Shown one piece after another: positions 10,701 through 55,347 of a DNA stretch of 64,000 bases (its first letter is position 1; every line of letters begins with the position of its first letter). The translations under genes and the position numbers were made by a program. Below the pieces are notes generated by a model that was given only the letters and a program-made list of their open reading frames with translations, had not been told where the DNA came from and ran no database searches. Source of the DNA: Flectonema sp. DT1601 (lineage: Eukaryota). The stretch lies in the NCBI GenBank assembly GCA_964019425.1, contig OZ025790.1, positions 1,364,001 to 1,428,000 on the forward strand, written 5' to 3'.

Positions 10701-13202
10701 ATGGTGAATGATGATGATGATGGTTTTGAGAAATTCTACGAAGGATTGGACGAGGGAACAGCTCCAATCATCGATTTGACAGAAACTGAAACATTACAAC
10801 CTTTTGGAGAAGTAAATAAAATAAAATCAAATAGATCCTACGAAGATGAGCAGAACAGTGACGTCAGTGATGTGAGTTCCACTATAGTACTGCCCTCAAC
10901 AGATATGATTAAGGAATCTGAGTTATACGAAGAAACTACGAGCAGAATGGCTGTGGAGAAAATGGAAACGTGTGATTGGAAAACTATAACAACAACAGCA
11001 GTGGAAGAAGAACAAAATCCTTTCTTTGGAAAGTGTCGAAGACCAACCCCAACAGAAACAGATTACCCTCAACAATATCAAAGGAGGCTATCGATGGGTT
11101 TTTCAGCTTTAAGGAGGTGCTCTCTGGAACATAAAAAACATCAAATTTGTATCATCAGAAAACCATCTCTCATAACCGACAACAGAACCAAAGAAGAAGT
11201 CATCAAAACATCTGCAGCTAAACTTTTGGAACTTCATTCAATCGCTAATAAACTGAACCATTCTCTGACTGTGGAAAGGTCAGCAGCAACCAGTGCGTAT
11301 CTCATGATTGACGGATCAAAATCATCAACTCCCTCCTCTCTGGCAGAAGCGGTCGAAACGATCTCAAACGCCGGAGCTAAGGAGTTTGAGATTCATGAAA
11401 AATGGCAAGCAGCGAAGAACAGGTTCACTCTCTCTCATGAAGACAGTGTTCTCTGGAATCATCATTTACAGACAATGGACTCAGTAGATGCTGCCATTCA
11501 TCACAATAGATTCTCTCAAGTTAAAGCATTTGATAACAGAGTTAGAAATAGTACCTCGATAGTTAGAATTTCTGAGAGGGGACTCGAAGCATCTGCTAAG
11601 AACAAAATGAAATTGAAAGAAAAATTCGAAGCTGAGGCGATGCAACACAAACACTACCTTGAAAAACTTGAGTTGGAAAGGACAAAATTAAAGGAGGCAA
11701 TTGATCAATCGTATGGTGAAAAGAAGGTCTCCTCTATGAACCGATACTTGTATTTGAGTGAAGAAGTCGTTCCGTCAGTTACGTCAGAATTTCAAAAACT
11801 TCTTGAGGACGAACCTCCACAACTAACCAAAGACGAAGAACGTATCCTTCGCGGTATTGAAGCAAAAAAACGACAAGCAGCCATCTCCCGTGAGCAAAAA
11901 CAAGAGATTTCGAGGAACGTTTTGAAAGCGAAGAGGGAATACGCTCGGAACAATATCGACGACCTCAAGGAAAGACTAGTCGTAAGGGCGAAGGTTTCTC
12001 TGGAATTTCAATCTTCGATCCATTTTACCTGCAGCACCCTAATTCTAAAAGCAGAATACAAAGCACTTCAGCGAGCTATACAAGATCTCAACAGACTACT
12101 GTCATTGTACATCGGTAATGATGAATGTGAAGACCAACTAATCATCCTTCAATGGAAGCTTTCTGTAGAGGAACAGAGAGTCGAAATCGACAGACTCTTA
12201 TCGCAAGTATTAGAGTCTCGAACTGAAGATTCTTCCTTAGCAGAGCTTGAAGAGAAAGAAAGAGTTGTACATCGGACAATGGTTGCTGAAGAAAGACAGA
12301 ACCAACGAGTATCAGAAACCGCCTTCTTAGAAAACATGGCTGACATAGCATTGTTAAGCAGACGTGTCTCTCAAGTGTTATCACCACCGAATGCTGCCCC
12401 ACCTTCATACTGGATTCAACCGGACCCGTCTACTTTTGATACGAATAATATGTTACCTGGAACATGGGTTTCTGCATTAAAGTCATCCATGATAACCTCA
12501 TTTAAAAATTGTACTCCGATGCTTCAACCAAAAAAAACGAGTTTACCGATTGGGTCACCAACACCATATTATATGCTTGATCTTGAGAGGACTGGAAACA
12601 CTTATGAGTTGCTTTCAGGGATCTCACCCATTGTGAAGTCAGCTGTATACAATAGAACATTCTTATTCAGTTTGTTTGTTATATCTGCGTGTGGTGTGTT
12701 GTCTGTGACGGATAATTCTCCTGTCGTTGTTAAAAAATTATCTAATGATTTGGTAGTGTTTCCTTCAATAAGAAAACCGACCTGCAGAGTTTCAAGAAGG
12801 AATCTACGAACCCGACCGAGAGAAATAATATCGTCGATGGATGATGAGTGCAGTGATAGTGGTTGTGATTTTGTTAAGGTGAGCACTCCTAAAAAGAATA
12901 CTTCTTCGAGTCCTAAAAAACGACGACGTAAGCAAATTGTTGATGAGCCAACCAGCCCAAAAGTCTTCACGCAAGCCACCACATTCTTCAAAGATCTGAA
13001 GACATCACCACGAGAGTTGTCGAGTTCTCTAACTTCGCCAGTCAATTCAGACAATTGTCGCATCCCATCTCTTGGTCTGAACCTCTCAGATCGTCAAACA
13101 AAGGTCTGCGGGATAGCGAAGAAGCAAAGGATACTTCGTAGGAGGCAGAAAGCGTTGCTTCAGGATTTGAAAGATTCCAGAGAGGAACGATTTATGAAAT
13201 AA
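10701..13202 (+). CDS. Uncharacterised coiled-coil-rich protein (~833 aa)
   Basis: Long open frame; the first 78 codons of the ORF-track call are poly-T/poly-A, so the start was moved to ATG 10701 (MVNDDDD). Confidence 0.7.
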   Translation: MVNDDDDGFEKFYEGLDEGTAPIIDLTETETLQPFGEVNKIKSNRSYEDEQNSDVSDVSSTIVLPSTDMIKESELYEETTSRMAVEKMETCDWKTITTTAVEEEQNPFFGKCRRPTPTETDYPQQYQRRLSMGFSALRRCSLEHKKHQICIIRKPSLITDNRTKEEVIKTSAAKLLELHSIANKLNHSLTVERSAATSAYLMIDGSKSSTPSSLAEAVETISNAGAKEFEIHEKWQAAKNRFTLSHEDSVLWNHHLQTMDSVDAAIHHNRFSQVKAFDNRVRNSTSIVRISERGLEASAKNKMKLKEKFEAEAMQHKHYLEKLELERTKLKEAIDQSYGEKKVSSMNRYLYLSEEVVPSVTSEFQKLLEDEPPQLTKDEERILRGIEAKKRQAAISREQKQEISRNVLKAKREYARNNIDDLKERLVVRAKVSLEFQSSIHFTCSTLILKAEYKALQRAIQDLNRLLSLYIGNDECEDQLIILQWKLSVEEQRVEIDRLLSQVLESRTEDSSLAELEEKERVVHRTMVAEERQNQRVSETAFLENMADIALLSRRVSQVLSPPNAAPPSYWIQPDPSTFDTNNMLPGTWVSALKSSMITSFKNCTPMLQPKKTSLPIGSPTPYYMLDLERTGNTYELLSGISPIVKSAVYNRTFLFSLFVISACGVLSVTDNSPVVVKKLSNDLVVFPSIRKPTCRVSRRNLRTRPREIISSMDDECSDSGCDFVKVSTPKKNTSSSPKKRRRKQIVDEPTSPKVFTQATTFFKDLKTSPRELSSSLTSPVNSDNCRIPSLGLNLSDRQTKVCGIAKKQRILRRRQKALLQDLKDSREERFMK

Positions 13203-15786: not shown

Positions 15787-18700
15787 ATGGCCCCGATGGA
15801 GGCGGCGAGAGATGTGCTGCTTAAGATGGATTCTGAAGACGCTATTCAAGTTCTAATTGACGTTGTTGGAAGGGTTGCTGTTTGGGATAAATTAATTGGA
15901 AGAGGTTTGGTTGAGAAATTATGTCTTCAAGATAAACAGTGTTGGTCATCAGCTTTAGAAGGAAGGGGATGGTGTGTGGAAGAAATGATTTCAATTGGTG
16001 TGAAGAAAAGATTTTCAAGAAGAGGATCACTCAACCACAAACCAGCTTTTTCTATAACAGTAGTACCTCCTCCAAAGAAGTCGTGTTATCGAAAGTGTAG
16101 TCCTTCTCCTACCCACGGCCTTCGAAGGTTATCAAGCAGATCAAAGTCACCTCCATCAAATAGATACGCTCGTAATAGAAGTGTATCTTGTGAAGTTCCT
16201 GTACGTTTTCACCTCGACAGCATGGCATCGTGTACTCTGGCTGCGCCTGTTCCCGCAAGAAAAAGAACAACAACACCACCTCCTTCATCATCAAAAAGAG
16301 AAATTCAAGTAAAAGAAAAAATACAAATGCTCAGAGACAAATATGGAGACGCCCCTCCTGCAGTCGGTGGTAAGGCTCCTCCAAAGATATCACCTCGAGT
16401 TCCGATCAGAAGGTGTAAGTCAGAGTTGTTATCTCCAACGCATTTGAGAGAAACCAGACGATCTGTTTCTGTGTATGTACAACCGAGTAAGCAAGCTACT
16501 GGGAAGTCCACTGCCGACCCTGTTCCAGATGTCGAGAAGCATCTCGTAGGGGCAGGCTTCTCTTCTTTTAAGAAAGAAAAGCCGAGTAAAGTATCACTCA
16601 CACCCTCTCCAGTCGTCTCATCAACGTTCAGTCCGACATCAATACCGTACTACAGTGAAAGTAGTATGAGTCCTGTTCAGTTGCCTCATTCTGAGGGGGA
16701 AGAAGAAATACTGTCTCCGATATTGTCACCAACAGGCGTTCCAAATGGGATTAAAAAAATGCAGACTAGCTCTCCAGCAATCACCGGCGTACCGAAATCT
16801 GTTAAGAAATTAGCTAGTAGAGATAGGCTTCCTTCAAGTAGTCCTGTCCGTACCCCGGCCAGAACTAATCTTTCGGCAAGAAAACAACCCAGAAGAACAC
16901 CAACGTCTCCGATAATGAACGCGGCTATGGTTTCTCGTCCGCTTTCGCAGTCGTCTCCGGAAATAAGAAGTAACGGATCCGGGACTCGAACTGAACGAGT
17001 TCAGAGGAATAGTCCTCAGATGGCACCTGTTGAAGTTCAATCTGATGACGATTCTCAAGTAGTTGGTAGCAGTCAAGACACTGAACAGATTCCCGAATAT
17101 CAAATTCCTGTTAGGGCTCGAAGCCCTCCATTGCAACCTTCCGCTGCTGCAGAAAGCATTCCGCCTTACCAAACTCCAACGAAGTCTTCGCAATCAAAAT
17201 CTCTGCCTCTAAGATCGAGCCCTCCAGCAAGACCTGCACACGAACCGATTCCATCGTATCAAAGCCCAAGTAAAACCCTAAGCCCGCCATCAAAACCTTC
17301 TGATACCCGGATTCGATCTGGACAACAAAGTCCCCCAGCTGGACCAAGCAAATCACCTACAAATCAGAGCCCTCCGCTAAAACCCTCGCCGTCAGCATTC
17401 GACAGAGTAAGCCTAGCACAGAGCCCTCCATCACAACCGCAGAACTCAAAACCCAGCGATGTCGGAGCTCTAGCTGGAGCCGCAAAGCCCGTCGAGGCCA
17501 AGGCACAGCCCTCAAGAAGTCCACCATTAAAAGCATCTGACGGAGTGAACGAAATAAGTCGAGCACAGAGCCCTCCAATACAACCGCAGAAATCAAAACC
17601 CAGCGACGCCGGGACTCGAACTGGAACCGCGAAACTTGTCGAGGCCGCTTCAAGAAGCCCGCCATTAAAAGCATCTGACGGAGAGAAAGTAGTAGTAAGT
17701 CGAGCACAGAGCCCTCCAGCGCAACCGCAGAAAGCAAAGTCCAGCGACGCCGGGACTCGAACTGGAACCGCAAAATCCGTCGGGGCCAATGCACAGTCAT
17801 CAAGGCATGAAAGCCCTCCTGCGACGCGATCCGGAACCGTGCAGCCCTCAAGGCAAAACCCGTCTTTGAAATCCCCACCTTCACAGCCGGTATCCGACGG
17901 AGCGAAAGTAGCAAGTCGAGCACAGAGCCCTCCGGCACAACCACAGAAATCAAAACCTAACGACATCGGGAATCGTACTGGAACCACAAAACCCGTCGAA
18001 GTCAGAGACCAAAATTCAAGGCATCAGAGCCCTCCTGCAACTCGAACTGCAAAACCTGTCGAGCTCAAGGCACAGCCCTTAAGAAGCCCGCCATTAATAG
18101 CATCTGACGGAATGAAAGTAGTAGTAAGTCGAGCACAGAGCCCTCCAGCGCAACCGCAGAAATCAAAACCCAGCGACGCCGGGACTCGAACTGGAACCAC
18201 GAAACCCGTCGAAGTCAAAAACCAACCCTCAAGGCATCAGAGCCCTCCTGCAACTCGAACTGGAACCGCAAAACCTGTCGAGTCCGCTTCAAGAAGTCAG
18301 CCATTAAAAGCATCTGACAGAGTGAACGAAGTAAGTAGAACACGGAGCCCTCCAATACAACCGCGGAAATCAAAATCAAGTGACGTCAAAGTCAATGCGC
18401 AGCCCTCAAGCCATCCATCGCAATCAAAGTCTGAGTCGGATGTGAAAAAGATACCGACAAAGAGTGTGACCAGTCCGACTAACGAAGAGTTAGAGATTGT
18501 AATTGAATTACCGATGATGGACGGTCTGGGTGAAGCTGTTGGATCGACACCTCCGATGGCACAAACGACGGTACCAATTGGAATTAAAGAAGATGTGAAA
18601 AATATTGTTTCGCCAAAAAACTTTCCAACATCACCTACAATGACTGCAGGAAAGGTGAAAAAACCAAACTCTCCTACGGTGGTAAGAGCTAAAAGCCCAC

Positions 18701-19365
18701 CTAAAGCAGCAAGAAAAACATCACCGACAAGAAGAGCGGCTACCCCAAAACAAGTTTGTATTACTCCACCGACACTGACAAGTGTTGATGACGAAGTTGA
18801 TACTCCGATAGAGACATTTATACTACCGGAGGCGGAATTACAAGACGACGACGACGACGCAATTAGATGCGTACCTCAACAAAGTAACAAAACAGTTTGC
18901 AGCAGTGTTGCTGATGATATGGTCGACAGCTCTATAAGCGATTTCAAAATTACGTTCGTTGACACTCCCATTGAGACCGGTCTCAATGATTCAATAAAAA
19001 TGTACGACAGCAGTGAAGAAATCGGAGATTTCGCAGCAAAGTCTGGAAGCAGTAAAAAAAACACACCTCCAATGACTGCGATAAATATCAACGTTGTGAG
19101 TCAGAAGAGAAACAGTACGATTCCACCTCTCACGTTGGGTAATTTAAGTGCCGTAATGAAACCAGAAATTGATTCTGCTAACTTCCTCAACATTCCTGGT
19201 TTTGTTAAACGAAAACCATCCAGTTCAGCAGTCAGTAATTGCGACAGCGATCGCTCTCACTATGACATGCCTCCACTTTCTCCAATGCCGTCAATGATGC
19301 GTGTAGACGGTTCTGCTCCGCCGATGAGCCCACTTTTAGGACCTCTGGATTCACCTCCTCCATAA
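15787..19365 (+). CDS. Ser/Pro-rich, probably disordered protein with internal repeats (1192 aa)
   Basis: Long ORF; many SP motifs; recurring RAQSPPAQPQKSKPSDAGTRTGT / SPPLKASDG modules. Confidence 0.75.
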   Translation: MAPMEAARDVLLKMDSEDAIQVLIDVVGRVAVWDKLIGRGLVEKLCLQDKQCWSSALEGRGWCVEEMISIGVKKRFSRRGSLNHKPAFSITVVPPPKKSCYRKCSPSPTHGLRRLSSRSKSPPSNRYARNRSVSCEVPVRFHLDSMASCTLAAPVPARKRTTTPPPSSSKREIQVKEKIQMLRDKYGDAPPAVGGKAPPKISPRVPIRRCKSELLSPTHLRETRRSVSVYVQPSKQATGKSTADPVPDVEKHLVGAGFSSFKKEKPSKVSLTPSPVVSSTFSPTSIPYYSESSMSPVQLPHSEGEEEILSPILSPTGVPNGIKKMQTSSPAITGVPKSVKKLASRDRLPSSSPVRTPARTNLSARKQPRRTPTSPIMNAAMVSRPLSQSSPEIRSNGSGTRTERVQRNSPQMAPVEVQSDDDSQVVGSSQDTEQIPEYQIPVRARSPPLQPSAAAESIPPYQTPTKSSQSKSLPLRSSPPARPAHEPIPSYQSPSKTLSPPSKPSDTRIRSGQQSPPAGPSKSPTNQSPPLKPSPSAFDRVSLAQSPPSQPQNSKPSDVGALAGAAKPVEAKAQPSRSPPLKASDGVNEISRAQSPPIQPQKSKPSDAGTRTGTAKLVEAASRSPPLKASDGEKVVVSRAQSPPAQPQKAKSSDAGTRTGTAKSVGANAQSSRHESPPATRSGTVQPSRQNPSLKSPPSQPVSDGAKVASRAQSPPAQPQKSKPNDIGNRTGTTKPVEVRDQNSRHQSPPATRTAKPVELKAQPLRSPPLIASDGMKVVVSRAQSPPAQPQKSKPSDAGTRTGTTKPVEVKNQPSRHQSPPATRTGTAKPVESASRSQPLKASDRVNEVSRTRSPPIQPRKSKSSDVKVNAQPSSHPSQSKSESDVKKIPTKSVTSPTNEELEIVIELPMMDGLGEAVGSTPPMAQTTVPIGIKEDVKNIVSPKNFPTSPTMTAGKVKKPNSPTVVRAKSPPKAARKTSPTRRAATPKQVCITPPTLTSVDDEVDTPIETFILPEAELQDDDDDAIRCVPQQSNKTVCSSVADDMVDSSISDFKITFVDTPIETGLNDSIKMYDSSEEIGDFAAKSGSSKKNTPPMTAININVVSQKRNSTIPPLTLGNLSAVMKPEIDSANFLNIPGFVKRKPSSSAVSNCDSDRSHYDMPPLSPMPSMMRVDGSAPPMSPLLGPLDSPPP
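17380..18380 (+). repeat. Coding imperfect tandem repeat, about six AQSPP-containing modules
   Basis: Recurrent GCACAGAGCCCTCC...CAACCGCAGAAATCAAAACCCAGCGACGCCGGGACTCGAACTGGAACC. Confidence 0.85.
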
Positions 19366-23209: not shown

Positions 23210-24932
23210 TAAAAACAAAAAAAACAAAAATGAACAAAATGAAATTATTTCAGTCAGCTACAGAAATCCATCTCATTCGTAGAAGCAATTGCCATGCAAA
23301 TGCCGTGAAATGTCAATCGAGGCTTTTCTTCATAAAAAGATTCATCGTTCCTTCATTTGTAATCTTACAATAACAGAAAGAGGGAGAGAGACACATTTGT
23401 AGAAATATTGAGGTAATCAGGTGTTGGTAATTGAGATGTTATCAGTCATCATTTATATTTTATTTAGGTTTTTTTAGTCATCAAATTCTAAGGTAACCAC
23501 TATCTGAATTGTTTTGGGAAATTTTTTTTTTTTAATTTTTTTTTTTTTTTAAACTTGTCAGCAATCTGCAATCCACCCCATCATGTGATGAAGTGTACTG
23601 AGGCTCTCCCTTTTGTGACAACAACTCATCATGGCCAGATGTTCCAGATAGCAATCTGAAACTGTTTTGTGTTTGAATATTTAAGTACCTGGCTGTTGAC
23701 CGTTTTCACGCAGATTATCACCTTTTCCTTTTTCTCTCTCCTAGGTTTCTTCTTTTAGTAGTAAAATGTGCTACGTTAACATATCTCGAGTGGTGATTCA
23801 CGCTCAGCGTCGGAATCTAATTAAACTGTTTTTGAGTTGAATTATATCAAATTAAAGCAACTTCATATTAATACACATGTTTATTTACAGTCGTTTGCTG
23901 CGCTGCCGCTGACAGTTAAAATTATCCAAGAGATTGTCGTTCCTTTTGAGATTGATAATACGGTTATCAGTTTTACCCAACTCGTGTGTTTTTGAGTACG
24001 TAATAGCATTATTAGTATCTCTCTCTGAGCATTTTTGACGCTCAGCAAAGGAGGTCGTTTTTGTTGCTTTTGTTAGTTGTCATCCTTGAGAAGTTAATAT
24101 CCGTAACTGTTCAAAGGAAGTGTTTTACAGGAAATCACAACCACAGAATATGTTGCACTATTCAGGAATCGAAAGCTGCTTTTCAGGGTTTTCCTTATTA
24201 CTTTACGATTGTTGCCGCCGTTTTGAACACTTCAGCAATTTTAATAAATATTTTTTGTTTTTCAGTAGATTACTAAAAAAAAGAGAAACGAATAAAGCAA
24301 CAATGCAAGTTTTTGTGACGTGTCCGGATTTGGGATTCCCTGCGGTGTCAGTCACAGTTGGTGCTGATTCTGTTGTGAGCGACGTGTTGACGACAGCGGC
24401 TGACGAGTGGGATGTCGATGCGGATAAAGTTGAACTGTCGTTCGCTGGTGATGCCCTTTGCGAAAGTAAGCGGTTAGTAGATTATGGAGTGGGTGCAAAC
24501 AGCGAGTTGGAAATACGAAAGAAGCTGGTTCGGATCTTCTGTAAAAACTGGTTTGTTGATGATAGAAAAAGGGAGAAGCTGCTTCTTTGGATGAAAGACC
24601 ACATTACGGAGGATTTATGTCTGGACACTCCCACATTCTCAGAAGATGGTTGCCTCACTATTGACAAAGGGTTGCTTCCTTCAGATGCCAAACGGATTTC
24701 CTTCCGCTATTCAAATTCCAACAGCACGCAGGTCATTTCACAAGTTACTTCTATTGGAGATATAGGTGTTTACAAATCACTTCTCTTGACCTTTCCGGTC
24801 TTAGTGGTGTCACCAGTATTGGAAGTAATTTCTTGTATAAGTGTTTACACGTCACTTCTGTTGAGTTTTCAGGTCTTAGTGGTGTTTCTAGTATTGGAGA
24901 TCATTTCTTGTCTGAGTGTTCACAAATCACTT

Positions 24933-25005
24933 GGGTAACGAAACTCGGATAGCGCGCCTCCTCGTGGTGTTGCCTGGATGCACCTTGTGTGTAACTAGAG
25001 TGCTG
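24933..25005 (+). ncRNA. HDV-like self-cleaving ribozyme
   Basis: P1 GGGTAAC 24933-39 / GTTGCCT 24969-75 with G1-U wobble; P2 AGCGC 24951-55 / GTGCT 25000-04; P3 GCC/GGT; L3 TCCTCGT; P1.1 CC / GG 24976-77; P4 TGCAC/GTGTA; candidate catalytic C24995 in J4/2 CTAGA. Confidence 0.85.
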
Positions 25006-30646: not shown

Positions 30647-31418
30647 ACTTGTTTGTTGTCCTACGAAATTTTGCTTTTTTTTTTTTGATTGACTGATAAT
30701 TATTAATACTAACTAGCTGGGTCCGGCGCAGTTATGACCTTAAACTGACTGTCATCTTACCTGATCCTTTTGGTTTTCATTTCTTGCTGAGTGATATGGC
30801 TATGTGCTGCCCAAATCTTTTGTGGTGCATTTCTAAAGCTTTTCGGTAAGCCCACAGTACACTTATAATGCTTTGGACAACTGGGGGTGAACGATCTTCG
30901 GTACTGTTCCGTGGTTTTCTATTTTCTTTCGTGGAGTGTGGGCATATGGCACATGTGGTCGTATTATAAAGAAAGATGTATATGAAAGAAAGAAGATTTT
31001 TTATTTTTTTCACCTTCCCCCCACTCCCAGATCGTTTCTCTTTTATTTTCTTTTGTTGTTTACAACCTGTTAGCCTCTGGGCAAGGTGGAGGCTGGAAGT
31101 CGATCACTTCCAGCCAATACTATGAAACTACAATCTTCGCGATTGGGTCCTTACTGATGCGGGCTACCCAGACCCCTCGTAGTCATCAGTTTGTATTTTG
31201 CTAACTAAACTAAACTAACTAATTAAACTCTACTTTTCTTATTCTCACTTTTCTGTTCTAAAATTAATGATACTAACTATTTTAAGCTGTACACGGGCTA
31301 ATAACTAAGAACGCCTTGAGTTATTTATAAGAAAAAAACCTTGTTTACGGTAAAGCAACTCATAAAAAAACCCCCCTTTTTTTAATCATCTCAGTTAATT
31401 TATTAAAAAAAAAAAAGA

Positions 31419-33056
31419 ATGCCTGACGCTGTGAGAGTAATTACCAGAATCCGACCGCTTCAAGAATCAGATGACTATCACTGTTGTGTTCCAGGTGTGT
31501 CTGGAAATAGCGTCATATTAAAAACATCTGATGGAGACCGAGAATACTCGAATGATATTGTTTTTGGTAGTTCTTCAGATCAAAGAGATGTTTTTGGATG
31601 CATAGGTCCAGACGTGATCGATTGTTTATTTGATGGAAGAAACGCATCCGTGATTGCCTACGGTCAAACTGGTAGTGGAAAGACTCATACTATGATAGGA
31701 AGTAAAAAGAATCCAGGAATCATTCCAAACCTTTTGAATAACATATTGGCAAATTGCACTGAGGGATGCTCAGTTCACATTAGAGCTGTTCAGGTTTATA
31801 ATGAACTGGTTTTGGATTTGTTTGACTGTGCTCCGTCAAACAAACGACTGCCTCTGAAGTTGAGGGAAGTGATGAAAGGAGTTTTTGTTCCGGAATCTGC
31901 GACTAGGAAGTTACTGTTACCGGGACAGGCTTTTGAAATTCTTTCGAAAACTTCTCAGAATAGAGAAGTGGCGAAGACTAACATGAATACGAACAGCAGT
32001 AGATCACACACCGTCTATATGATCGATTTGGCTCAAGAAGCACCTGAATTGTGTGGAGAATTAATATCGACGTTATATTTGGTTGACTTAGCTGGGTCTG
32101 AGAACGCTAATCGAAGTGGAGTTACAGGTCCACGTCTACAAGAGACTTCCAACATCAATCGGTCCTTAGCAGCTTTGAAAGGAGTAATGGGAGCACTTGC
32201 AGCAGGTGAAACCTTTACACCGTACAGAGATAGTGTTTTAACAAAGTTACTAAAAGATTGCATGGGTGGAAATGCAAAAACAACATTGCTGTGTTGTGTC
32301 TCTTCGTCGAAAGATGATGAAATTGAAACGAGAAGCACTCTCGAGTTTGGATTGTTGTCTCAGAAGGTAACCACGTTCGTTTCAAGAAATATTAGGAAAA
32401 GTTATCCTCAATTAAAAAACGAGATCGATCTAGTTCAGTCAATATTATTAAACCTGCGATCTGACATTTCCGTTTTAGAAAATAAATTACCCACCGAATG
32501 CAACACCATTCGAGGGATTCCTCGTACTTTTATATGTCCGCTGACTTCAGCATTGACACCTAACGTCACCGTTATGAAAGACCCGGTCATCGCCTCGAAC
32601 GGTAAGACGTATGAGTCGGAGGCTTTGAAGAGGAAATGGTTACGGAGTGACTCCAAGGGTGATATCAAACCAGTTGCAGGGATTTTGAATCTCCCTGATC
32701 CGGTCACCGATATGCTGTTTTTTAAAAATAAGAATTGTTGTTCTCAGATTGCTACCTGGAGAATAGAGAGACTTTGGCCTTCTGATGTCCTTCGTTTGGT
32801 ACTGGAATATTCAACACCTGAAATCACACTAGCTAGTAGATTAGTGTGTAGTACATGGGAAAGAGGAACCAAAGAAGAAGAGTTCTGGTCAACAATACTA
32901 CAGCGAGACTATCGTAATTACCCTCCACCATCCAATACTAAACTAGGTTGGAAGTCGTGGATGAGACAATATTTTCGCGCATGTGGATCCAGACCGAAGA
33001 GCTCCGCAGGAACAGGTCGCAGTACTGTTTTTGGTCTTCGATTGGCTGCTCCATAA
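31419..33056 (+). CDS. Kinesin motor domain fused to U-box and F-box-like domains
   Basis: AYGQTGSGKTHT, NTNSSRSH, LVDLAGSE, PYRDSVLTKLL (motor); PRTFICPLT...MKDPVIASNGKTYESEAL (U-box); WPSDVLRLVLEY...SRLVCSTW...EEFW (F-box). Confidence 0.9.
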   Translation: MPDAVRVITRIRPLQESDDYHCCVPGVSGNSVILKTSDGDREYSNDIVFGSSSDQRDVFGCIGPDVIDCLFDGRNASVIAYGQTGSGKTHTMIGSKKNPGIIPNLLNNILANCTEGCSVHIRAVQVYNELVLDLFDCAPSNKRLPLKLREVMKGVFVPESATRKLLLPGQAFEILSKTSQNREVAKTNMNTNSSRSHTVYMIDLAQEAPELCGELISTLYLVDLAGSENANRSGVTGPRLQETSNINRSLAALKGVMGALAAGETFTPYRDSVLTKLLKDCMGGNAKTTLLCCVSSSKDDEIETRSTLEFGLLSQKVTTFVSRNIRKSYPQLKNEIDLVQSILLNLRSDISVLENKLPTECNTIRGIPRTFICPLTSALTPNVTVMKDPVIASNGKTYESEALKRKWLRSDSKGDIKPVAGILNLPDPVTDMLFFKNKNCCSQIATWRIERLWPSDVLRLVLEYSTPEITLASRLVCSTWERGTKEEEFWSTILQRDYRNYPPPSNTKLGWKSWMRQYFRACGSRPKSSAGTGRSTVFGLRLAAP

Positions 33057-33074
33057 AGCAGTAGTTGTTAAGAT

Positions 33075-33244
33075 TGCCTAGATAGGACGAAGCCGAGGGA
33101 AGCCATTGCGGTGTTGACGTGCAAATCGCTCGTCAAAGCTGGGTATAGGGGCGAAAGACCCATCGAACCATCTAGTAGCTGGTTCACTCCGAAGTTTCCC
33201 TCAGGATAGCTGGAACCATAAAAGGAGTTACGCCTAATGATTAC
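33075..33244 (+). rRNA. Isolated, internally deleted fragment of cytosolic LSU rRNA (pseudogene)
   Basis: TGACGTGCAAATCG...TGGGTATAGGGGCGAAAGACCCATCGAACCATCTAGTAGCTGGTTC...CCGAAGTTTCCCTCAGGATAGCTGG is conserved eukaryotic 28S sequence; no other rDNA nearby. Confidence 0.9.
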
Positions 33245-36060: not shown

Positions 36061-39000
36061 ATGTGTATGGAATCTGATGACGTCATCGTATCGTATCGTG
36101 ATATAGTCTTGCCTTCGTTTGACAAAGTTGATCAAATTTCTGTTGTTCATAGTTCGATAATCGATTTATGGCCGAAAGGAGGAAAGAAAAATGATCTCAA
36201 AGTTAAATACGAAATCACCGGCAATCTGATAAATGAGATCATAACAACCTCATGTGGATTGCTGTGTGGGATTGAGAACTCTACGTGGGATGTGGTAGTC
36301 AGACTTCAGTCTGAAAAAAAACCACGAGACGAATTCATTTCAGCAGCTGGTATTATTCAAAACCTCCTAACAAGTTACATGTCCAACAGTAAAGGTTCAT
36401 ACCAAAACTGGATGCTGTCTCCTGGATTGCCAGGAGGTATAAGCAACATTTGTGTCACCATCATTATAAAGAAAGCAACTGGAATGTCAGCCATCAGTGA
36501 TGTTGATGTTATTCATAAAAAGTGTATCGAGTTGCTTCCACTCAACTGTGATTTCAATACTTTGGTGTTGGTTTGGTGTAGGGCAACGGAAATTAAATTA
36601 ACGTGTGCTGAACTTGAAAAACTGTCGTCATCGGATGAGGTAAGGCAAATTATTAAGAATGTAAAAATGATCAACATCCCAAACAGAAATCACTGCTGGA
36701 AAAATCAGTTTTTTTTAGATGAAATATTCAGACTTACAATAACTGAATGTCCAGCATCGGGGTTGCATGCGATTCTGTGTGGAGAAGAGAATGTTCTTCT
36801 TTCACAAGATTACTTAATTGAAAGGCCAAGACTCTTGTTTAAAAAGGGACTCATCCGGAATCGAACCCACGTTTCTTGGTTTCAAATTTTCAGTAATTTC
36901 CCTCCGCACTATTGTATTCCTGAGAAGGTACAACTTAAATTGGTTAAAGCAGTTTCTGATGACGACAACAACTCCGAAACCTCCCCAACAGAAGAGCATT
37001 TTATGAAAATACTGGAACTCTTATCCAAGTGTTATGAATCATTTTTCGAACACAACGCTGACAAATTCCGACCTGACATAATTTTTGACTCCACCGAGAA
37101 TCGAACTGGATATAAATTTTTTACTAATAAGTTATTATTGAAGTGTGGGTGTAAAATTGAGAATAAAGTGTTTCTGGATGTTCTAAAATTGATTAGAAGG
37201 CAACAGCTTTGTGTGTATTGTTTTTCAGATTTGATCGATCTTATATGTGAATTAGAAATCGTAAAAAGATTATTACGACCGAATAGCCTACTCAACAAGG
37301 ATGTCTTCAGCAATCAATTAGAAATTCCTTGCAGTAACACAGAAATTTTTCAACTTCTTGAAAAGAATTCTATAAACGGAAAAGCAACTTGCAATCTAAG
37401 TTCGTATTTTAAAATAAAAATATCACTAAACAGCGTTCCGACGTTGGTGTGGTTATCGACGGCCAGACTCAGCAACATGGTTTCTAACGGGGGAGTGTGT
37501 TTTATTGAAGCGATGACAATGGCAAATAGTGTACTGAATAACTTCGATGATGATGAAATAAAAAACGGAATTTTTTCATCGTTGAGAAGGATATGTTGTT
37601 TTACAGATATCAAAAAAGTAACAACCCCAGAGCAAGTTTCAGTGATTGGTGAGGTGCTGTTGTCTATATCAAATTTAAAAAACTTATTATATGAAAAAGA
37701 ATCATCTATTTCCCTTTGGAGTTGTCTGAAAGAAATTTCAAACCCAAGCCATCCGTTGTCGATAATTGAATGCTGGAACATCTTAAAAAAAAATCTAATC
37801 TCAGTTGTAATTGAAAAAGGTCTTCATTTGAACATCAACTCTGTACTGGAACGACCTAAATTTAATCAGGTGTTGTTCATTTATAGTGAAATATGCTATG
37901 CTGATAATTTATTCAGCAAAGTTTCAAGGGGAGGTGCTGTAACTCCTGAACTTTGGAAGCAGTACACGAACATCAGTTACTTTAATAGGAAGGAAATGGG
38001 AATCGTAAAGTATCCTGAGTTCACTTCAGCAATATATAATTTATCTAAGATGGTGTCGGTGAAGTATCCCGTTGGTGATTATTCAGACGGAATACGTCTT
38101 TATCACTCTGGTCAATTGAAGGGTATCGGATTGTTATCTAACTCAGAATTTTTTGACTACTCAGAACCTCACGTGAGAGAAATTCAAATTGCGATAAATA
38201 GCAATTCGATGATGTCACTAGATGGTAAACATAAATGGAAAATAATACACAAAGAGGGATCAACAGTCAGTGAGATCCAGTCGGTGTTGGACGAAATTGG
38301 AGGGCAATCTACGAAAAGAGTTATGAAATTAGTAATTCCGATATCATCGATGCCGCAAACTATCGACCAACTCATCAGAGTTATTGGGTTCAGTAAAATG
38401 TTAAATAACAACTCGTTAGTTTTAAAGTATGCATCACACCATCCGAGTGTGTTGGGTCTTTCAAAGGGTTTCAACGATGATTATTTGACCTCAATTTGTA
38501 ACGTTATTTCTGATGAGATAAACACCTCCAACTCAGTCAGTCTTAATAATTGTAATACTCCAGAAGAGAAATGGTTTCTGTTGTGTAGATTACTTCTCAC
38601 GTCCTACGCGGAGAATGATTTTCACGGATGTCATTCACAGATGGAAACTATTTTTAAATCAGTTGATAAAAAACAATTTGATATTTACACGATGAGTAGT
38701 AGATGGCTTGGGATGGTTTATGATGTCGAATTATTTTATTCTATACTAGTAAAGGTAATGATGGATTGTTATGGGTTTTCAACTAGAGAAATCGAACCAA
38801 AAGAAATCCCGACAGACATTGGACAAAAACAATTTTTTAAAAATAAAAAAATATCAAAATCGACTCGTTCAGTAAAAAGAAGCACAATTTCTATGCCCAC
38901 GCCACCAACAGAAACAATGCCATCTCTGACTCCAATTGTCGGGAGGGGTGCTTCGTTTTTAATAAGAATATCGTATTTAGAGCTCTGCTGGCATCTACAA

Positions 39001-39552
39001 CCATCATCAGTCATTGAGTCGCCACTCTTATGGATCGATCCACTCACTCTTATCCCGTCATTAGAAGAAGTGGAATTGTCAATATCACTTTTTAGAAAGG
39101 TACAACAAAACTATCAAACGTACTTTAATGAGATCAACTGTTTGGGTGGAATGTTTGACGTAGTTTGCATATCAAAGTTTATTGCGACCACATTCGGATC
39201 TGATGAGACTGAAGCGTCGGTTTTTTTTAACGACAAGAGAACTGGTTTAACTCAAACTGATTACCTGTTGTATCGTTCCTGGATTGATTTAGTTAGTTTT
39301 GTATTCGATTTGATAGACGTCACTCACGTTGGGGAGTTGAGTAGTACGGTACTTTGTAGGTATCTTCTTGATCACCAACTTGGTGAAATTATTTCAAATT
39401 TTGGATCAGTCTCGGATAAGCCGACGTGCCATTATCAAATTCCTTTCTTAGACCACCACCTGCCGGGGTTTTTGACGAAATCAGACTTCTCGTTGTTTCT
39501 GACGACGGTTGCTTTTAAGAATGGAAATCCTCTTTTAGAAGAACAGCCTTGA
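36061..39552 (+). CDS. Uncharacterised protein (1163 aa)
   Basis: Long uninterrupted ORF, no motif recognised. Confidence 0.75.
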   Translation: MCMESDDVIVSYRDIVLPSFDKVDQISVVHSSIIDLWPKGGKKNDLKVKYEITGNLINEIITTSCGLLCGIENSTWDVVVRLQSEKKPRDEFISAAGIIQNLLTSYMSNSKGSYQNWMLSPGLPGGISNICVTIIIKKATGMSAISDVDVIHKKCIELLPLNCDFNTLVLVWCRATEIKLTCAELEKLSSSDEVRQIIKNVKMINIPNRNHCWKNQFFLDEIFRLTITECPASGLHAILCGEENVLLSQDYLIERPRLLFKKGLIRNRTHVSWFQIFSNFPPHYCIPEKVQLKLVKAVSDDDNNSETSPTEEHFMKILELLSKCYESFFEHNADKFRPDIIFDSTENRTGYKFFTNKLLLKCGCKIENKVFLDVLKLIRRQQLCVYCFSDLIDLICELEIVKRLLRPNSLLNKDVFSNQLEIPCSNTEIFQLLEKNSINGKATCNLSSYFKIKISLNSVPTLVWLSTARLSNMVSNGGVCFIEAMTMANSVLNNFDDDEIKNGIFSSLRRICCFTDIKKVTTPEQVSVIGEVLLSISNLKNLLYEKESSISLWSCLKEISNPSHPLSIIECWNILKKNLISVVIEKGLHLNINSVLERPKFNQVLFIYSEICYADNLFSKVSRGGAVTPELWKQYTNISYFNRKEMGIVKYPEFTSAIYNLSKMVSVKYPVGDYSDGIRLYHSGQLKGIGLLSNSEFFDYSEPHVREIQIAINSNSMMSLDGKHKWKIIHKEGSTVSEIQSVLDEIGGQSTKRVMKLVIPISSMPQTIDQLIRVIGFSKMLNNNSLVLKYASHHPSVLGLSKGFNDDYLTSICNVISDEINTSNSVSLNNCNTPEEKWFLLCRLLLTSYAENDFHGCHSQMETIFKSVDKKQFDIYTMSSRWLGMVYDVELFYSILVKVMMDCYGFSTREIEPKEIPTDIGQKQFFKNKKISKSTRSVKRSTISMPTPPTETMPSLTPIVGRGASFLIRISYLELCWHLQPSSVIESPLLWIDPLTLIPSLEEVELSISLFRKVQQNYQTYFNEINCLGGMFDVVCISKFIATTFGSDETEASVFFNDKRTGLTQTDYLLYRSWIDLVSFVFDLIDVTHVGELSSTVLCRYLLDHQLGEIISNFGSVSDKPTCHYQIPFLDHHLPGFLTKSDFSLFLTTVAFKNGNPLLEEQP

Positions 39553-41403: not shown

Positions 41404-42969
41404 ATGAGAGTGGCAAAGCTTGCGATCCCTCCAACGGAGAATGAGCATAAGATTTTTCGAACTCTTATTGGTGTGAATGACACTTTTGGATTGAAATGTA
41501 CCCTGAGAGTAGCAGGCGGGTGGGTAAGAGATCGTCTTCTGGGACATGAAAGCAACGACATCGACATCGCTCTCGAAGGTGTTCATGAAGGAATTCCGAT
41601 GACTGGATCTGTGTACTCTAATTTCGTAGCTCGTTATCAAACTCAACATGGTTTAGAAGCCTCACACATAGGAACAATAAAGGCTAATCCTGATCAGTCG
41701 AAACATTTAGAAACAGCAACGATGCAAATCTGTGGAATTGATATTGACTTTGTTAACCTTCGTTGTGAAGAGTACGCCACCAGCAGAATACCTATCATGA
41801 GACCAGGTACACCAGCTGAGGATGCAAGTCGTAGAGATTTGACGATAAACTCGTTATTTTATAACATTCACACGAGTTCTGTTGAGGACTTCACGAGTGG
41901 TCTTACGGACTTGGAAGATCATGTAATTAGGACACCTCTGCCCCCGTTGATGACTTTCTTTGATGACCCTCTGAGATTGCTGCGTTGTGTTCGTTTTGCA
42001 TGTCGTTTTCAGTTTGAGATCCACCCGGCAATCCTTGAGGCTTCGAAAGATGAAAAAATTCATCGGGCGTTGCGAGACAAAGTTTCTCGTTCTCGCGTCG
42101 GCATTGAAATCACGAAAATACTTTCATCTCGCAGCGCCGTACGAGCATTGGAGTTATTTCATGAATTTGGTATCGAAAAAATCGTTTTTGAGGAATGCTC
42201 ATTCTCCAAAAAGGGACAACTGATTTCCTCAAAACCAGTTGATTTCACTCCATCACAGTGGGTTGAATCTCTCAAGATAATTAAAAACTTAAACAGCGAT
42301 GATCTGGAATTGAACTTGACAGCAATTGTTGCTCCATATTTGTCTGAAATTGCAACTGGTGAGTTAGATAAGAAACTTCAAGGGATTCTTACGAATGGAC
42401 TTTCGATTTCTTCGCAATACGCAAGTTTTAGTTTTGTGATCTTGAGAGCTATAAGAATTCTACCTAACGACTTTTGGGACTCTCCAATAGAACTGGACAT
42501 TCCACACACTGTTGACAACTACCCGAAAGACATTGCTTCCGTCAACCCGAAGAGATTAGCACTTTGTGAAATGATGCAATTAGCTATTGAAAAAGTAGAC
42601 AAAAACAAGACGAGAGAACTTTGGGAACAGTCGCTTCTGATATCTGCTGCCCTGAATGACGTTGACATCGATGATGCACATCTTTTGATTACCAGAATTA
42701 AGAAGGATAAATATCTTTCGACTGTTCCCACACTCACTCCCATTCACAGAGGTAATGAATTGACTGTATGTGTTTTATTATTATTAATTTTTTTTATTGG
42801 GAGAGTGAGAATAAAACGAACCAAAAAGGCAACACCAACAACACAGAAATTGCTTAACCTACCGGTAGGACCAACCATCAAGACGTACCTTCAGAGGCAA
42901 TTTATATTTCAAAGTCAAGTAAAGAGTCCTTCAGGTGATGACGTGCTTGCTTTCTTAAAAGCTCATTGA
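41404..42969 (+). CDS. CCA1: Class II tRNA nucleotidyltransferase (CCA-adding enzyme), probable intron 42766-42846
   Basis: LRVAGGWVRDRLLG, DIDIAL, DFVNLR, EDASRRDLTINSLFY, DDPLRLLR motifs. Confidence 0.92.
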   Translation: MRVAKLAIPPTENEHKIFRTLIGVNDTFGLKCTLRVAGGWVRDRLLGHESNDIDIALEGVHEGIPMTGSVYSNFVARYQTQHGLEASHIGTIKANPDQSKHLETATMQICGIDIDFVNLRCEEYATSRIPIMRPGTPAEDASRRDLTINSLFYNIHTSSVEDFTSGLTDLEDHVIRTPLPPLMTFFDDPLRLLRCVRFACRFQFEIHPAILEASKDEKIHRALRDKVSRSRVGIEITKILSSRSAVRALELFHEFGIEKIVFEECSFSKKGQLISSKPVDFTPSQWVESLKIIKNLNSDDLELNLTAIVAPYLSEIATGELDKKLQGILTNGLSISSQYASFSFVILRAIRILPNDFWDSPIELDIPHTVDNYPKDIASVNPKRLALCEMMQLAIEKVDKNKTRELWEQSLLISAALNDVDIDDAHLLITRIKKDKYLSTVPTLTPIHRGNELTVCVLLLLIFFIGRVRIKRTKKATPTTQKLLNLPVGPTIKTYLQRQFIFQSQVKSPSGDDVLAFLKAH

Positions 42970-43090
42970 TACACTAACCTTCCTCAATGACGACCACGTT
43001 GCTTTCTCACACGAAAAGGACAGCTGTATCCTCTCTTTAATAATTATATGTTCACAACAGAGACAAACAGACAAGAAAAAGAAAAAAAAA

Positions 43091-43758
43091 ATGGGGAGAA
43101 AAGCCATGCATGCGGTCAGGAAAAAGATATTAAACAAAGTATGTTAATAGTTATTGGAAAGGAGCTGTTGTTGTCAGAAATAACAAACAAACAACAAAAA
43201 CAGGATAAAGAAGATAAGAAGTTAAAAAAAAATGAAGCAACCACCGAAAGACGTTCTCGTTTTAATGATTTAGGTGCGGCAGAGTTTCATGAAAAAAGTG
43301 TGAAGAGAGTGACCCAAGTTCACAGTCAGATGTACCTCAGACATAATGAAGCCTTAGGACCTCCGTACAGAGTTCTTGTTGATACGAATTTTATAAATTT
43401 TTCAATGCAAAATAAAATGGACATGATTCAGGGTATTATGGACTGTTTATATGCGAAAGTTGATATATTTGTGTGTGGATGCGTCTTTGCTGAATTACAA
43501 AAACTTGGAGATCGTTTTAAAGTCGCTCTGAAATTAACAACCGATCCCCGATTCAAGCGTCTGGTTTGCGATAATACATACGCTGATGATTGTATTGTAA
43601 ACAGAGTAACTGAGAATCCAATTTATATTGTCGGAACGGCAGATAAAGATCTGAAAAGACGACTTCGTAAGATACCCGGAGTGCCTATTATGTACATATC
43701 AAAACACAGATACACTGTTGAGAGACTGCCTGATGCATACGGTGCTCCGAGAGAATAG
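43091..43758 (+). CDS. FCF1: rRNA-processing PIN nuclease FCF1/Utp24, exons 43091-43138 and 43204-43758
   Basis: NEALGPPYRVLVDTNFINFS, TYADDCIV, DLKRRLRKIPGVPIMY. Confidence 0.93.
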
Positions 43759-45504: not shown

Positions 45505-47067
45505 ATGGAAGCTCTTGACCTTTCGGTATCGGATACCAAGTTAGAAGAAACACTGCTGGATAGATTTGATACAGCAACAGAAGGGTTGGTACTCAATGAC
45601 GAAGGAGACTTCGAATCAAATGCTAACTTTCTTCAAACAATGATGAAGAAACAATACTGCAACGTCGACGCGTTAAATGAAGATGGTATGAAAAGGTTTT
45701 TCGCATCCCACAGAGTGTTGGCTGCGAGAATGTCTCGTGAAGTTGGATCGCTCTCTGTGAGATTCACCGTCCAGTACAACCTGTTCTCGGGTACTGTTAA
45801 CGCTCTCGGATCCCCTGATCAAATTAAATGGTTGAGAGAGAGTCACAACAAAGGAGAGTTAGGATGCTTCCTACTCACAGAAAAGGCTGCTGGTGTCCTT
45901 TCTGGACTCATCGTTGAGACCACTGCCGAATACACAAAAGACGGTTTTATCATCAACACACCAAATGACGACGCTGTTAAAGTCTGGATCAGTCAGGGAC
46001 TACTTGCAAAATGGGGAGTTGTAATCGCAAAATTAATCATAGACGGAATCGAACATGGCATTCACGGATTCATCGTTGACATGACTGACGGTAATATTGT
46101 AAAGGAAGACATGGGTAGGAAAACTGCATACAATTCACTCGATAATGCAAATGTGACGTTTAACAATGTTGTTGTGCCTCACAAGAACATGTTGACGAAG
46201 TTTGCGAGGATCAGCCAAGATGGAAAGTTTGAGTTCGACGGAGAAAAGCCGCCTTCTTTTATTAAAATAGCACAGAGACTGTTGAGCGGGAGGCTATGCA
46301 TCGCAGACAGCGCTGTTAAATTCTTTAGTGAATGTGTTTCAACGACTCAGAAGTACACTTCAACTAGAAAGGTTTGGGTAGAACCAACAAAACAAATAAC
46401 AATATCTGAACTCCCTTATGTGAAACAACTTTTTAACGAAGCCACTCAGTGCGCATCAGTTCACTCAAAATATCTATTACACCTGCAGAATGAATTTGCT
46501 CAAACTGCAAAGGCTGGAACAGAGCCAAGCAGAAAACTTCAGAATATGATCGCCGCAGCTAAGTCTGAGGCAGTTGACTTTGCGACTACCTGGTTGAGTA
46601 GAATTCGTTGTAAGGTTGGAAGCTATTCTTTAATGAAAGAATCACCATTTGGAACCAGCAGTGATATCTTATACTGCATGCGGTTTGCTGAAGGCGACAC
46701 GCATATTTTACAACAATCACTTGTGAGAGAAGTCATTAAAGAAAAGACAACACCGTTTGGGTTTGTTTCTCTTCTTCTTCAAGTATTCAAAGGATTTTTG
46801 ATAAGACACACCGGAATGATGTCCCCAGCAGGTCAACTTGCTCACAAAATGAATGTCTCTATATTATCGTTATTGATTTACATGAAATTAAACAGCCGTC
46901 GACTCGGACGTGTCGGGGCCTGGTATGCTGCTGGAGAACGTGTTTACAGCGTAGCAAAACTTGTGTCACTCAATTTGATTTATAAAACAGTCGTTCAAAG
47001 ATACGGTCATTCTGCGGAAACTGCGCAATTCGCGAGGGTATCAGTGAGAGATTGTGCAGCTCTGTAA
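45505..47067 (+). CDS. Acyl-CoA oxidase/dehydrogenase family flavoprotein
   Basis: FTVQYNLFSGTV, GCFLLTE, ETTAEY...FIINTP...KVWISQG, LDNA...F, RLLSGRLCIA, FAEGDTHILQQ. Confidence 0.9.
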   Translation: MEALDLSVSDTKLEETLLDRFDTATEGLVLNDEGDFESNANFLQTMMKKQYCNVDALNEDGMKRFFASHRVLAARMSREVGSLSVRFTVQYNLFSGTVNALGSPDQIKWLRESHNKGELGCFLLTEKAAGVLSGLIVETTAEYTKDGFIINTPNDDAVKVWISQGLLAKWGVVIAKLIIDGIEHGIHGFIVDMTDGNIVKEDMGRKTAYNSLDNANVTFNNVVVPHKNMLTKFARISQDGKFEFDGEKPPSFIKIAQRLLSGRLCIADSAVKFFSECVSTTQKYTSTRKVWVEPTKQITISELPYVKQLFNEATQCASVHSKYLLHLQNEFAQTAKAGTEPSRKLQNMIAAAKSEAVDFATTWLSRIRCKVGSYSLMKESPFGTSSDILYCMRFAEGDTHILQQSLVREVIKEKTTPFGFVSLLLQVFKGFLIRHTGMMSPAGQLAHKMNVSILSLLIYMKLNSRRLGRVGAWYAAGERVYSVAKLVSLNLIYKTVVQRYGHSAETAQFARVSVRDCAAL

Positions 47068-48959: not shown

Positions 48960-50024
48960 ATGACTGAAGCCCTCCCGATTAGAGTAGCTGAGTTCTACAG
49001 TGGAATTGGTGGTGCCCGTACTGGAGTTGAGAAATGGGCAGCTGAAAGTAACACCGAGATTGTAGTAGTTGCCAGCTACGACATGAATGACCAGGCAAAC
49101 AGAGTTTACGAATCAGTGTTCAAACACAAAGTCAGATCTAAGGGGATTGAACATTTAAAAATTGAGGAAATAAAAAAATGCAAAGCCGACATGTGGCTGT
49201 TAAGCCCTCCATGTCAACCTTTTACCTTAGGAGGAGGAAGACGTTCAGCTACTGGCGATAGTGATAACCGATGCAAGTCTTTCACTCACATTGTAAAAAT
49301 ACTTTCTGATCTCTCTGAGGAGTCTCAACCACGCTGGATAATAATTGAAAATGTGAGTCAGTTTGCTGAATCTGAGACGGTTTTGGCATTCAAAAATGTC
49401 CTCGTCGCTGCTCACTATAATCATAAAGAAGTAATTACGTCTCCCATATCTGTGGGGATTCCGTACCAGAGAAAAAGGTATTATTTATTATGTTCAAAAA
49501 CATCTGAAATTGAAGATTTTTCGAATTTCTTAAGCCGAACTCGTCCAGACCTTTCAAAACCACCATCCCTCAGCAGCTTTTTAAAATCTCGTCAGGTTGA
49601 CATCGAGATTGGTCATAAAGATGAAAAATTACTTGTCCCGGAATCGATCTTCAATGATCATAAAACTTTCATGTTTGACGTAGTATCTGGTAACAGTACG
49701 TCGTGTTCATGTTTTACTAAGGGATACTCAAAGAACTATAAAGGTTCAGGAAGCCTTTTGCTACTACCAAACCCAACCTCATCACTGAAACGATCAAAAC
49801 CAGACGAAGAGTCGATGTGGATATCTGGAGCAGAAATCATTTCATCTGGTGCGCTAATTAGATACTTCTCTCCTGATGAGTTGTTGGCTCTGCATGGTTT
49901 TCATGACTTGTTTAGATTCCCAGAAGGGATGACAAACATTCAGAAATATCGATTGATTGGTAACTCTCTCTCATGTGATGTTCATCAAATGCTTACAAAG
50001 TGTCTGATAGAAGGAAAGGAATAG
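48960..50024 (+). CDS. DNMT2: DNMT2/TRDMT1 tRNA cytosine-38 methyltransferase
   Basis: EFYSGIGG, SPPCQPFT, IENV, QRKRYY, DNMT2-type CFTKGY...GSGS, RYFSPDE, YRLIGNSL. Confidence 0.92.
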   Translation: MTEALPIRVAEFYSGIGGARTGVEKWAAESNTEIVVVASYDMNDQANRVYESVFKHKVRSKGIEHLKIEEIKKCKADMWLLSPPCQPFTLGGGRRSATGDSDNRCKSFTHIVKILSDLSEESQPRWIIIENVSQFAESETVLAFKNVLVAAHYNHKEVITSPISVGIPYQRKRYYLLCSKTSEIEDFSNFLSRTRPDLSKPPSLSSFLKSRQVDIEIGHKDEKLLVPESIFNDHKTFMFDVVSGNSTSCSCFTKGYSKNYKGSGSLLLLPNPTSSLKRSKPDEESMWISGAEIISSGALIRYFSPDELLALHGFHDLFRFPEGMTNIQKYRLIGNSLSCDVHQMLTKCLIEGKE

Positions 50025-51751: not shown

Positions 51752-52895
51752 TGTTATATTTACACACATTTTTCACTTGATTTTGTTTGAGTGTAATATG
51801 ATCAAGATTACATTTCCCCCCGACAGCACATATGGCAATTTTTCAGCACGTAGGTGAAACCTACACTCTGTCATTGAATAACTCGATTACTGAATGACAA
51901 CACAGATGTGTATGCAGCTAAGTTAGAAACATTTACTGTAACCATAAATAACACGGTGTATAAAAAATTTGGAGTATAACAACTTTGGATATAATAAAGA
52001 TGGTGGATTTGGCCATTTTTTGGCGATTTGGAGACTTTTTATACGCCATGATATTTATAGTTACAGTATTATAATGTTAAGTATTTACATCAATTACAGA
52101 GTGTTTACCAATACTAACATTACCTTAGTCACACACATAAGCGTGAATTGAATAGCCCAAAAAAGGACAACATATCCACAAATAACGTTGTTTAGCTGGT
52201 TGCACACCAGTCTCTAGAGATGGCTGTTGATGCAGTCTAAACGAGAACTAGGGAGTTCCCTTCTCCAATCTTTGTAACAGCCTAGCCATACTTAACTTCA
52301 GTTACAGTTGGCAATTCAAGTTTTGGGTTCTTTATCATAAGCTGTTCTTGCACACAAAAAACCAGCCATGATAGCATTTTTGTAATGCTACTATCCACGC
52401 TTCAAAAGCTCCAACAAGTCCCAGCAAGTCTAACTGAGTATCATGTTCATCATGTCAAGTTCGAATCCCGGTGAAGGCTATAAGTGACTCTCTTTTAGTG
52501 ATAGGCAGCCCCCTGAACGAAGCTGTGAGGGAGTTTTAGAGATTAAGACTGTACTCTACACAGGATCTGTTTTTGAGTACATTCGTGTTGGAGTTTACAT
52601 AACCCAGCACAGGCCAAAGCTGGATGATGACGTAGACCAGCACTGTGCCGCATGAGCATTGCGATGATTGCATACGATGCGTCAAGTTTCACCTTGACAA
52701 GCACAGTCTGGTCACTTACAGCTTTTTTAATAATCAGGTGGGTCTTCCTTTGAAAGTTGACTTTTCAAATTTTATGATTTGAATTAAAATAAAGTAAATT
52801 ACTCGTCCAGTTCGATTCCCCGTGAAGTATAGTTTTCTTCCTAGAATAAAGGATCCGACGTCTGCGGGGTAAGTGAAGTTGTCCTTTTCAAGTTC

Positions 52896-55242: not shown

Positions 55243-55347
55243 ATACCTTCTCGGCCTTTTGGCTAAGATCAAGTGTAGTATCTGTTCTTATCAGCTTAAT
55301 ATCTGATATGACACCTTGTGTGTCATATCAGATATTATAGTAATTTC
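55243..55347 (+). pseudogene. 3'-truncated U2 snRNA copy
   Basis: Identical to U2 for the first ~83 nt, ends within the Sm site; upstream flank partly shared with that of the full gene. Confidence 0.9.

Follow-up and report, generated by a model that had tools for sequence, protein, structure and literature searches.

The kinesin–U-box–F-box protein of Flectonema sp. DT1601 belongs to a family spread over at least two distantly related groups of protists

The fusion of a kinesin motor to both a U-box and an F-box is real. Within the window analysed here (64,000 nucleotides of contig OZ025790.1 from Flectonema sp. DT1601, with zero N), the open reading frame at 31419..33056 (+ strand) runs unbroken from an ATG at 31419 to a TAA at 33056 and encodes 545 amino acids, in which Pfam places Kinesin, U-box and F-box-like domains in that order. 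In a full-length search, four proteins outranked all ordinary kinesins, with 34–39% identity over 88–99% of the protein; they include proteins of Diplonema japonicum and Namystynia karyoxenos and a record labelled 'Hpha', which we read as Hemistasia phaeocysticola. The same domain order and spacing recur in eight other diplonemid-type and 20 dinoflagellate-type proteins. An assembly or gene-calling artefact can be ruled out, because the same fusion is found in independent genomes and transcriptomes. A sequence-only reading of this locus had described a motor with intact motifs, a short coil and both boxes in one uninterrupted frame, and each of these elements was recovered. A pyrimidine tract with a terminal AG, read from the sequence at 31371..31394 (+), lies 24 bases 5' of the ATG and is likely a spliced-leader acceptor.

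The N-terminal motor (residues 4–318; 31428..32372, +) is a strong match to Pfam Kinesin (PF00225, 266 bits, E 5e-79), and its catalytic motifs are intact, with a canonical P-loop (31662–31685), switch I (31992–32009) and switch II (32085–32102). It is followed by a neck linker and short coil of about three heptads (residues 319–358; 32373..32492, +), which align with the kinesin-1 neck and for which AlphaFold predicts a helix at residues 336–356 (pLDDT above 90). From the N-terminal position of the motor and its kinesin-1-like neck we infer plus-end movement. Kinesin-1 (KIF5/KHC; PDB 4hna, 1goj) provides the best sequence matches of both motor and neck, including the best PDB matches of the motor, but the remainder of the protein is different. 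The end of the motor is 49 residues from the U-box, and the long coiled-coil stalk and light-chain/cargo tail of kinesin-1 are absent; in their place are a coil of ~20–40 residues and the U-box/F-box tail.

The U-box (residues 366–452; 32514..32774, +) had been placed correctly, at about 32520–32755, from the letters alone. It scores 23.2 bits against PF04564, over the cut-off of 21.4. We modelled the tail (residues 335–545) with AlphaFold from a 30-sequence alignment, at a mean pLDDT of 83.7, and compared the model with 48,161 solved chains. Residues 366–452 match the U-box of OsCIE1 (7xed; Z 8.9, rmsd 2.1 over 67 residues) and that of CHIP (Z 8.4), and nearly all of the first 50 matches of this comparison are U-box/RING or F-box chains. 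A Foldseek search returned nothing at E <= 0.001, its top rows being U-boxes or RINGs and F-boxes, and a profile of the family tail matched U-boxes in the PDB at E 1e-11 to 1e-14. The domain therefore has both features used to assign the class, a PF04564 score over the cut-off and a U-box fold without zinc ligands. It shares this fold and the core motif with the U-box E3 ligases CHIP, plant PUB12/13/14 and Ufd2/E4B. CHIP, plant PUBs and Ufd2/E4B bear TPR or ARM substrate domains; unlike the window protein, no solved structure among them includes a motor or an F-box directly next to the U-box.

Equivalents of the CHIP contact residues in the kinesin family, mapped by way of alignments to plant U-boxes, are presumed ones. 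In CHIP, the E2 docks at I235, H260, V264 and P269, the last being the proline of loop 2 (available text of PMC2396629). The window protein keeps the D-P-V / G-x-T-Y core and a loop-1 leucine (Leu375). Its helix contact position is occupied by Lys406, and its loop 2, modelled at a pLDDT of 57–65, is out of register. In a pairwise alignment with a one-residue gap, Trp407 falls opposite the U-box Trp of plants. Given this alignment, the retention of Leu375 and the Pfam score, the window U-box may be less worn than we read it here.

The F-box (residues 453–524; 32775..32990, +) directly continues the last helix of the U-box, starting with W-P-S-D-V-L and including the subsequent helices up to Tyr518. 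The earlier placement at about 32770–32920 was accurate, and the unit extends slightly further, to ~32990. Profile searches treated the two boxes differently: whereas the U-box passes its Pfam cut-off, the window F-box falls under its own (PF12937, 16.2 bits, or 16.2–19.6 across scans, against 24.3), and a single-sequence PDB search with it was not significant (E 0.058). We nevertheless uphold the F-box because of its relatives, the family tail profile against the PDB (FBXW8 at E 1.6e-6, Skp2 at 1e-5) and the fold, in which residues 452–525 match FBXO31 (Z 8.4, rmsd 2.5 over 72 residues), Fbs2 (Z 8.1) and Cdc4 (7.9). The three-helix fold and the P-x-E/D start that mark the class are both present, as they are in the SCF receptors Skp2, Fbw7, beta-TrCP and FBXO31, which share the fold and the P-x-acidic start. 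In contrast to these receptors, the F-box here is near the C-terminus and fused to a U-box, and no substrate domain can be recognised C-terminal to it. Pfam scans found no substrate-binding domain (WD40, LRR or kelch) after the F-box, which is followed by a short tail only; F-box and C-terminus are 50–60 residues apart in most family members. The tail ends in a G-L-x-L motif (residues 538–542; 33030..33044, +) that is common to both lineages.

We tentatively favour, at slightly less than an even chance, a motor-driven ubiquitin-ligase receptor. Its F-box would bind Skp1 and so recruit Cul1–Rbx1 (SCF), and its motor would carry the ligase along microtubules or hold it there. Skp1 binding is suggested by the P-x-D start, which is kept in 9/9 diplonemid-type proteins; a change of the F-box proline has been used elsewhere to weaken Skp1 binding (available text of PMC5029927). 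Since no WD40, LRR or kelch domain stands behind the F-box, substrates would be picked by their position on microtubules, perhaps also by the G-L-x-L end. The sub-cut-off score of the window F-box and its Ser where most relatives have Leu count against this reading.

The lack of a substrate-binding domain would also suit two other arrangements. The F-box and Skp1 might act outside SCF, or an E2 or SCF might itself be cargo, with the motor delivering it (to the feeding apparatus or flagellar base, for example) and no substrate being chosen. F-box–Skp1 complexes of this non-SCF kind take part in centromere assembly and endosome recycling (available text of PMC3814724), and the dinoflagellate-type F-boxes are without the P/acidic pair. 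However, the F-box start is canonical in 9/9 diplonemid-type proteins and the neighbouring, retained U-box suggests ubiquitin transfer; we consider such a cargo or scaffold role rather unlikely. We think it less likely still that the boxes mainly ubiquitinate their own motor, as a built-in off switch that removes it at the end of the track or at a cell-cycle step. F-box proteins can be turned over in their own SCF, and SconB is stabilised by the proline change (available text of PMC5029927). Either box could suffice for such a switch, which would fit the reciprocal wear described below, but the motor would be left without a cargo domain and the conserved end motif without an explanation.

The range of the family was determined by several searches. 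A search with the tail against 1.84 billion representatives gave 25 matches, of which eight were kinesins with the tail (the query, three known and four new, Lacrimia lanifica among the latter); the others were mostly unrelated U-box proteins. Searching longer proteins with a tail profile gave 27 matches; apart from the query, 20 of them were kinesins carrying the tail and six were unrelated U-box proteins. As this search scored 7,990 candidates only and missed known diplonemid orthologues, the family range is incomplete. Named members of the dinoflagellate type come from Polarella glacialis, Polykrikos kofoidii and strain TGD, with cluster mates from Breviolum and Cladocopium; the group's name rests on a look-up of 10 of the 20 proteins, all named ones being dinoflagellate. 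Four diplonemid-type members are transcriptome-derived (D. japonicum, N. karyoxenos, L. lanifica and 'Hpha'). In total, transcriptome assemblies supplied seven named members, and in those species the fusion is therefore a single mRNA.

All 29 aligned proteins have the order motor, coil, U-box, F-box, with 111–130 residues between the U-box Cys and the F-box Trp (29/29). The G-L-x-L motif occurs near the C-terminus of 26 of 28 members, compared to a mean of 0.9 and a maximum of 5 in shuffles, for a pattern that was chosen after viewing the alignment and with one truncated protein excluded. With a profile built from diplonemid F-boxes alone, 19/20 dinoflagellate-type tails outscored every one of 400 shuffles, and we conclude that this group also has an F-box-like unit. 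Other searches added little. A word-based tail search recovered the query alone, and one of 80 metagenome kinesin loci carried the tail, of the dinoflagellate type. None of 17 viral kinesin loci had it, and a viral fold library contained separate U-box or F-box proteins only, none at E <= 0.001. The ESM Atlas search yielded only leads under 0.9, and NCBIfam had no match for the three proteins submitted. It should also be noted that one ESM Atlas cluster, with 51 proteins and a representative of 1099 aa, combines a kinesin and a U-box in 98% of its members, and is possibly another kinesin–U-box family. Two ENA proteins of 190 and 242 aa combine both boxes with an end resembling that of the family, but lack a motor; they are either truncated members from a third lineage or free U-box–F-box proteins.

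Comparison of the two groups reveals that the boxes look reciprocally worn. In a 13-residue register, the F-box signature P and D are present in 9/9 diplonemid-type proteins, whereas among the dinoflagellate-type proteins P is found in 2/20 and an acidic residue in 0/20. Conversely, all 20 dinoflagellate-type U-boxes have S-P-x-T/S/C in loop 2 at one spacing, compared to 0/9 diplonemid-type proteins at that place; a similar word occurs elsewhere in the loop of two of the latter, the window's included. At the helix contact position, 14/20 dinoflagellate-type proteins have His and the others a hydrophobic residue, whereas 4/9 diplonemid-type proteins have K, R or Q, the residue of the window protein being Lys. 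Pfam scores follow the same division, although reporting thresholds varied between scans from E 0.05 to 10: the U-box is over its cut-off in 20/20 dinoflagellate-type versus 4/9 diplonemid-type proteins (unreported in 3/9 full-length scans), and F-box-like is reported in 4/20 versus 9/9 and over its cut-off in 1/20 versus 3/9. The U-box core residues C, P, G and Y are invariant (29/29), and a loop-1 hydrophobic residue is present in 29/29.

This pattern modifies what had been claimed for the window protein. The idea of a motor-tethered ligase or adaptor stands as far as a motor-linked ligase part is concerned, given the profiles, the fold and the conservation; judged from residue patterns, however, it is improbable that both boxes are fully functional in this protein. 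In diplonemids the F-box keeps its signature, whereas the U-box retains its fold but has an apparently worn E2-binding surface and is likely to dock an E2 only weakly or as an accessory. For the dinoflagellate type the roles would be reversed, with the U-box the likely active E3 and the F-box non-canonical. A dual ligase, in which the U-box would also be an active E3/E4 beside SCF on the same motor (for instance with priming by one and chain extension by the other), is unlikely in our view, although it has several points in its favour: the window U-box exceeds the Pfam cut-off, its fold equals that of E2-bound U-boxes, the core and the loop-1 residue are universal in the family, and Trp407 is a possible contact. 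The diplonemid-type proteins argue against it, with K, R, R or Q at the helix contact position in four of nine, a variable loop 2 that has no in-register motif, and the U-box missing from the Pfam reports of three. Least probable of all, we think, is a purely structural role, in which the boxes would be modules for folding, dimerisation or autoinhibition and would recruit no ubiquitin machinery. The coil is short, U-boxes such as that of CHIP dimerise (according to the titles of the structure matches) and each box is worn in one lineage; yet in each lineage one box retains precisely its partner-facing signature residues. The reciprocal wear offers a ready natural comparison of the two boxes.

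Motor trees were built with FastTree (115 rows) and with mixture models (39 and 28 rows picked from these), against a background of 79 unlabelled metagenome kinesins and animal kinesin-1. Each group formed one clade, and the two were not joined. Dinoflagellate-type motors were placed within kinesin-1 and diplonemid motors outside it in three trees, which have long branches and unlabelled outgroups. In the 28-row tree, where only two slow diplonemid motors were retained, the kinesin-1 clade without diplonemid motors had support of 97/96, and the diplonemid motors were weakly placed (84/76) beside a clade containing a kinesin-3. Nonetheless, the best pairwise matches of diplonemid motors are kinesin-1, and a tree with both groups forced into one motor clade is worse by 5.5 log units but not rejected (p-AU 0.20). 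Against a diplonemid motor profile, dinoflagellate-type motors (median 309) scored much the same as those of animal kinesin-1 (median 312), and with a dinoflagellate U-box profile, 21 unrelated U-boxes outscored the nine diplonemid-type ones (medians 50 and 24). Profile scores thus give no sign that the motors or U-boxes of the two groups are specially related, and the case for a single origin therefore rests on domain order, spacing and the end motif. On these grounds one origin of the architecture is fairly probable, the alternative being a tail swap or convergence. It is possible, but doubtful, that the whole picture holds, namely an undescribed family of motorised ligases from one ancestor, spread by ancient descent or eukaryote-to-eukaryote transfer, that relies on SCF in diplonemids, ligates directly through the U-box in dinoflagellates, and finds its substrates by walking on microtubules instead of through a binding domain.

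The surroundings of the gene were also annotated. Eighteen of the 19 open reading frames of >=200 aa in the window are on the + strand, the remaining one being nested antisense. Unidirectional gene arrays have been described for Diplonema papillatum (available text of PMC10161547), and the nearest relatives of the window kinesin are diplonemid proteins; together these features point to a diplonemid host. Seven bases past the kinesin stop codon begins a fragment of LSU rRNA (33063–33178, +, likely to ~33215; Rfam RF02543, 66 bits, model positions 821–950), the sole such match in the window and probably a relic of rDNA lying in the 3' region. Further along are a U3 snoRNA (52545–52724, +) and two U2 snRNAs, the first complete (52896–53087, +) and the second diverged in its 3' half (55243–55437, +). 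B-box-like words upstream of U3 and U2 (52459–52469 and 52810–52819) recall the tRNA-linked snRNA promoters of trypanosomes, although ARAGORN found no tRNA. Two genes (53457–54599 and 24150–24938, +) encode proteins with a weak ubiquitin/SUMO-like domain, followed in the former by BspA-type leucine-rich repeats. Others encode a poly(A) polymerase/CCA-type nucleotidyltransferase (41404–42969, +), Fcf1 (43048–43758, +), an acyl-CoA dehydrogenase (45505–47067, +) and a C5 cytosine methyltransferase (48960–50024, +). The long open reading frames 10467–13202, 15787–19365 and 36061–39552 had no Pfam match.

The sequence-only reading had not recognised this architecture from characterised kinesin families. 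We likewise found no paper describing such a kinesin in the full-text literature searched, most subscription papers lying outside it. The protein is not a one-off: the family spans two or more groups of protists that are far apart. A survey of 1,624 kinesins from 45 eukaryotes, with no diplonemid or dinoflagellate among its species, lists KISc-RING, F-box-KISc, FBOX-WD40-KISc and HECT-KISc architectures, and includes no U-box kinesin (Wickstead et al. 2010, PMC2867816). According to the same source, the plant kinesin-7 KISc-RING proteins (Arabidopsis AT2G21380) resemble the window protein in combining an N-terminal motor with an E2-binding-type tail domain, but they have a zinc RING, lack an F-box and are classed as kinesin-7. 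Gene models that also join a motor to a ubiquitin-system domain, of the F-box-kinesin, FBOX-WD40-kinesin and HECT-kinesin types, are scattered through the survey; unlike here, their ligase part is N-terminal to the motor (PMC2867816). The available parts of PMC12816148, PMC13615690, PMC4327156 and a 2026 kinesin-2 preprint make no mention of the combination, and their supplementary trees or tables may include members. In databases, the members are called 'kinesin-like', 'KIF5' or 'unnamed'; two carry an automatic Pfam domain string and there is no family name. We conclude that this is a conserved kinesin architecture made from known parts and apparently undescribed.

Diplonemids are now amenable to tagging and imaging (available text of PMC13615690). 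Localisation and a Skp1 pull-down are thus within reach, provided that an orthologue exists in the model species. Diplonemids and dinoflagellates abound among marine protists and have unusual microtubule structures, and ligases usually get to microtubules via separate adaptors. If confirmed, a conserved single chain with a motor and two ligase-recruiting boxes would place protein destruction directly on the cytoskeleton.
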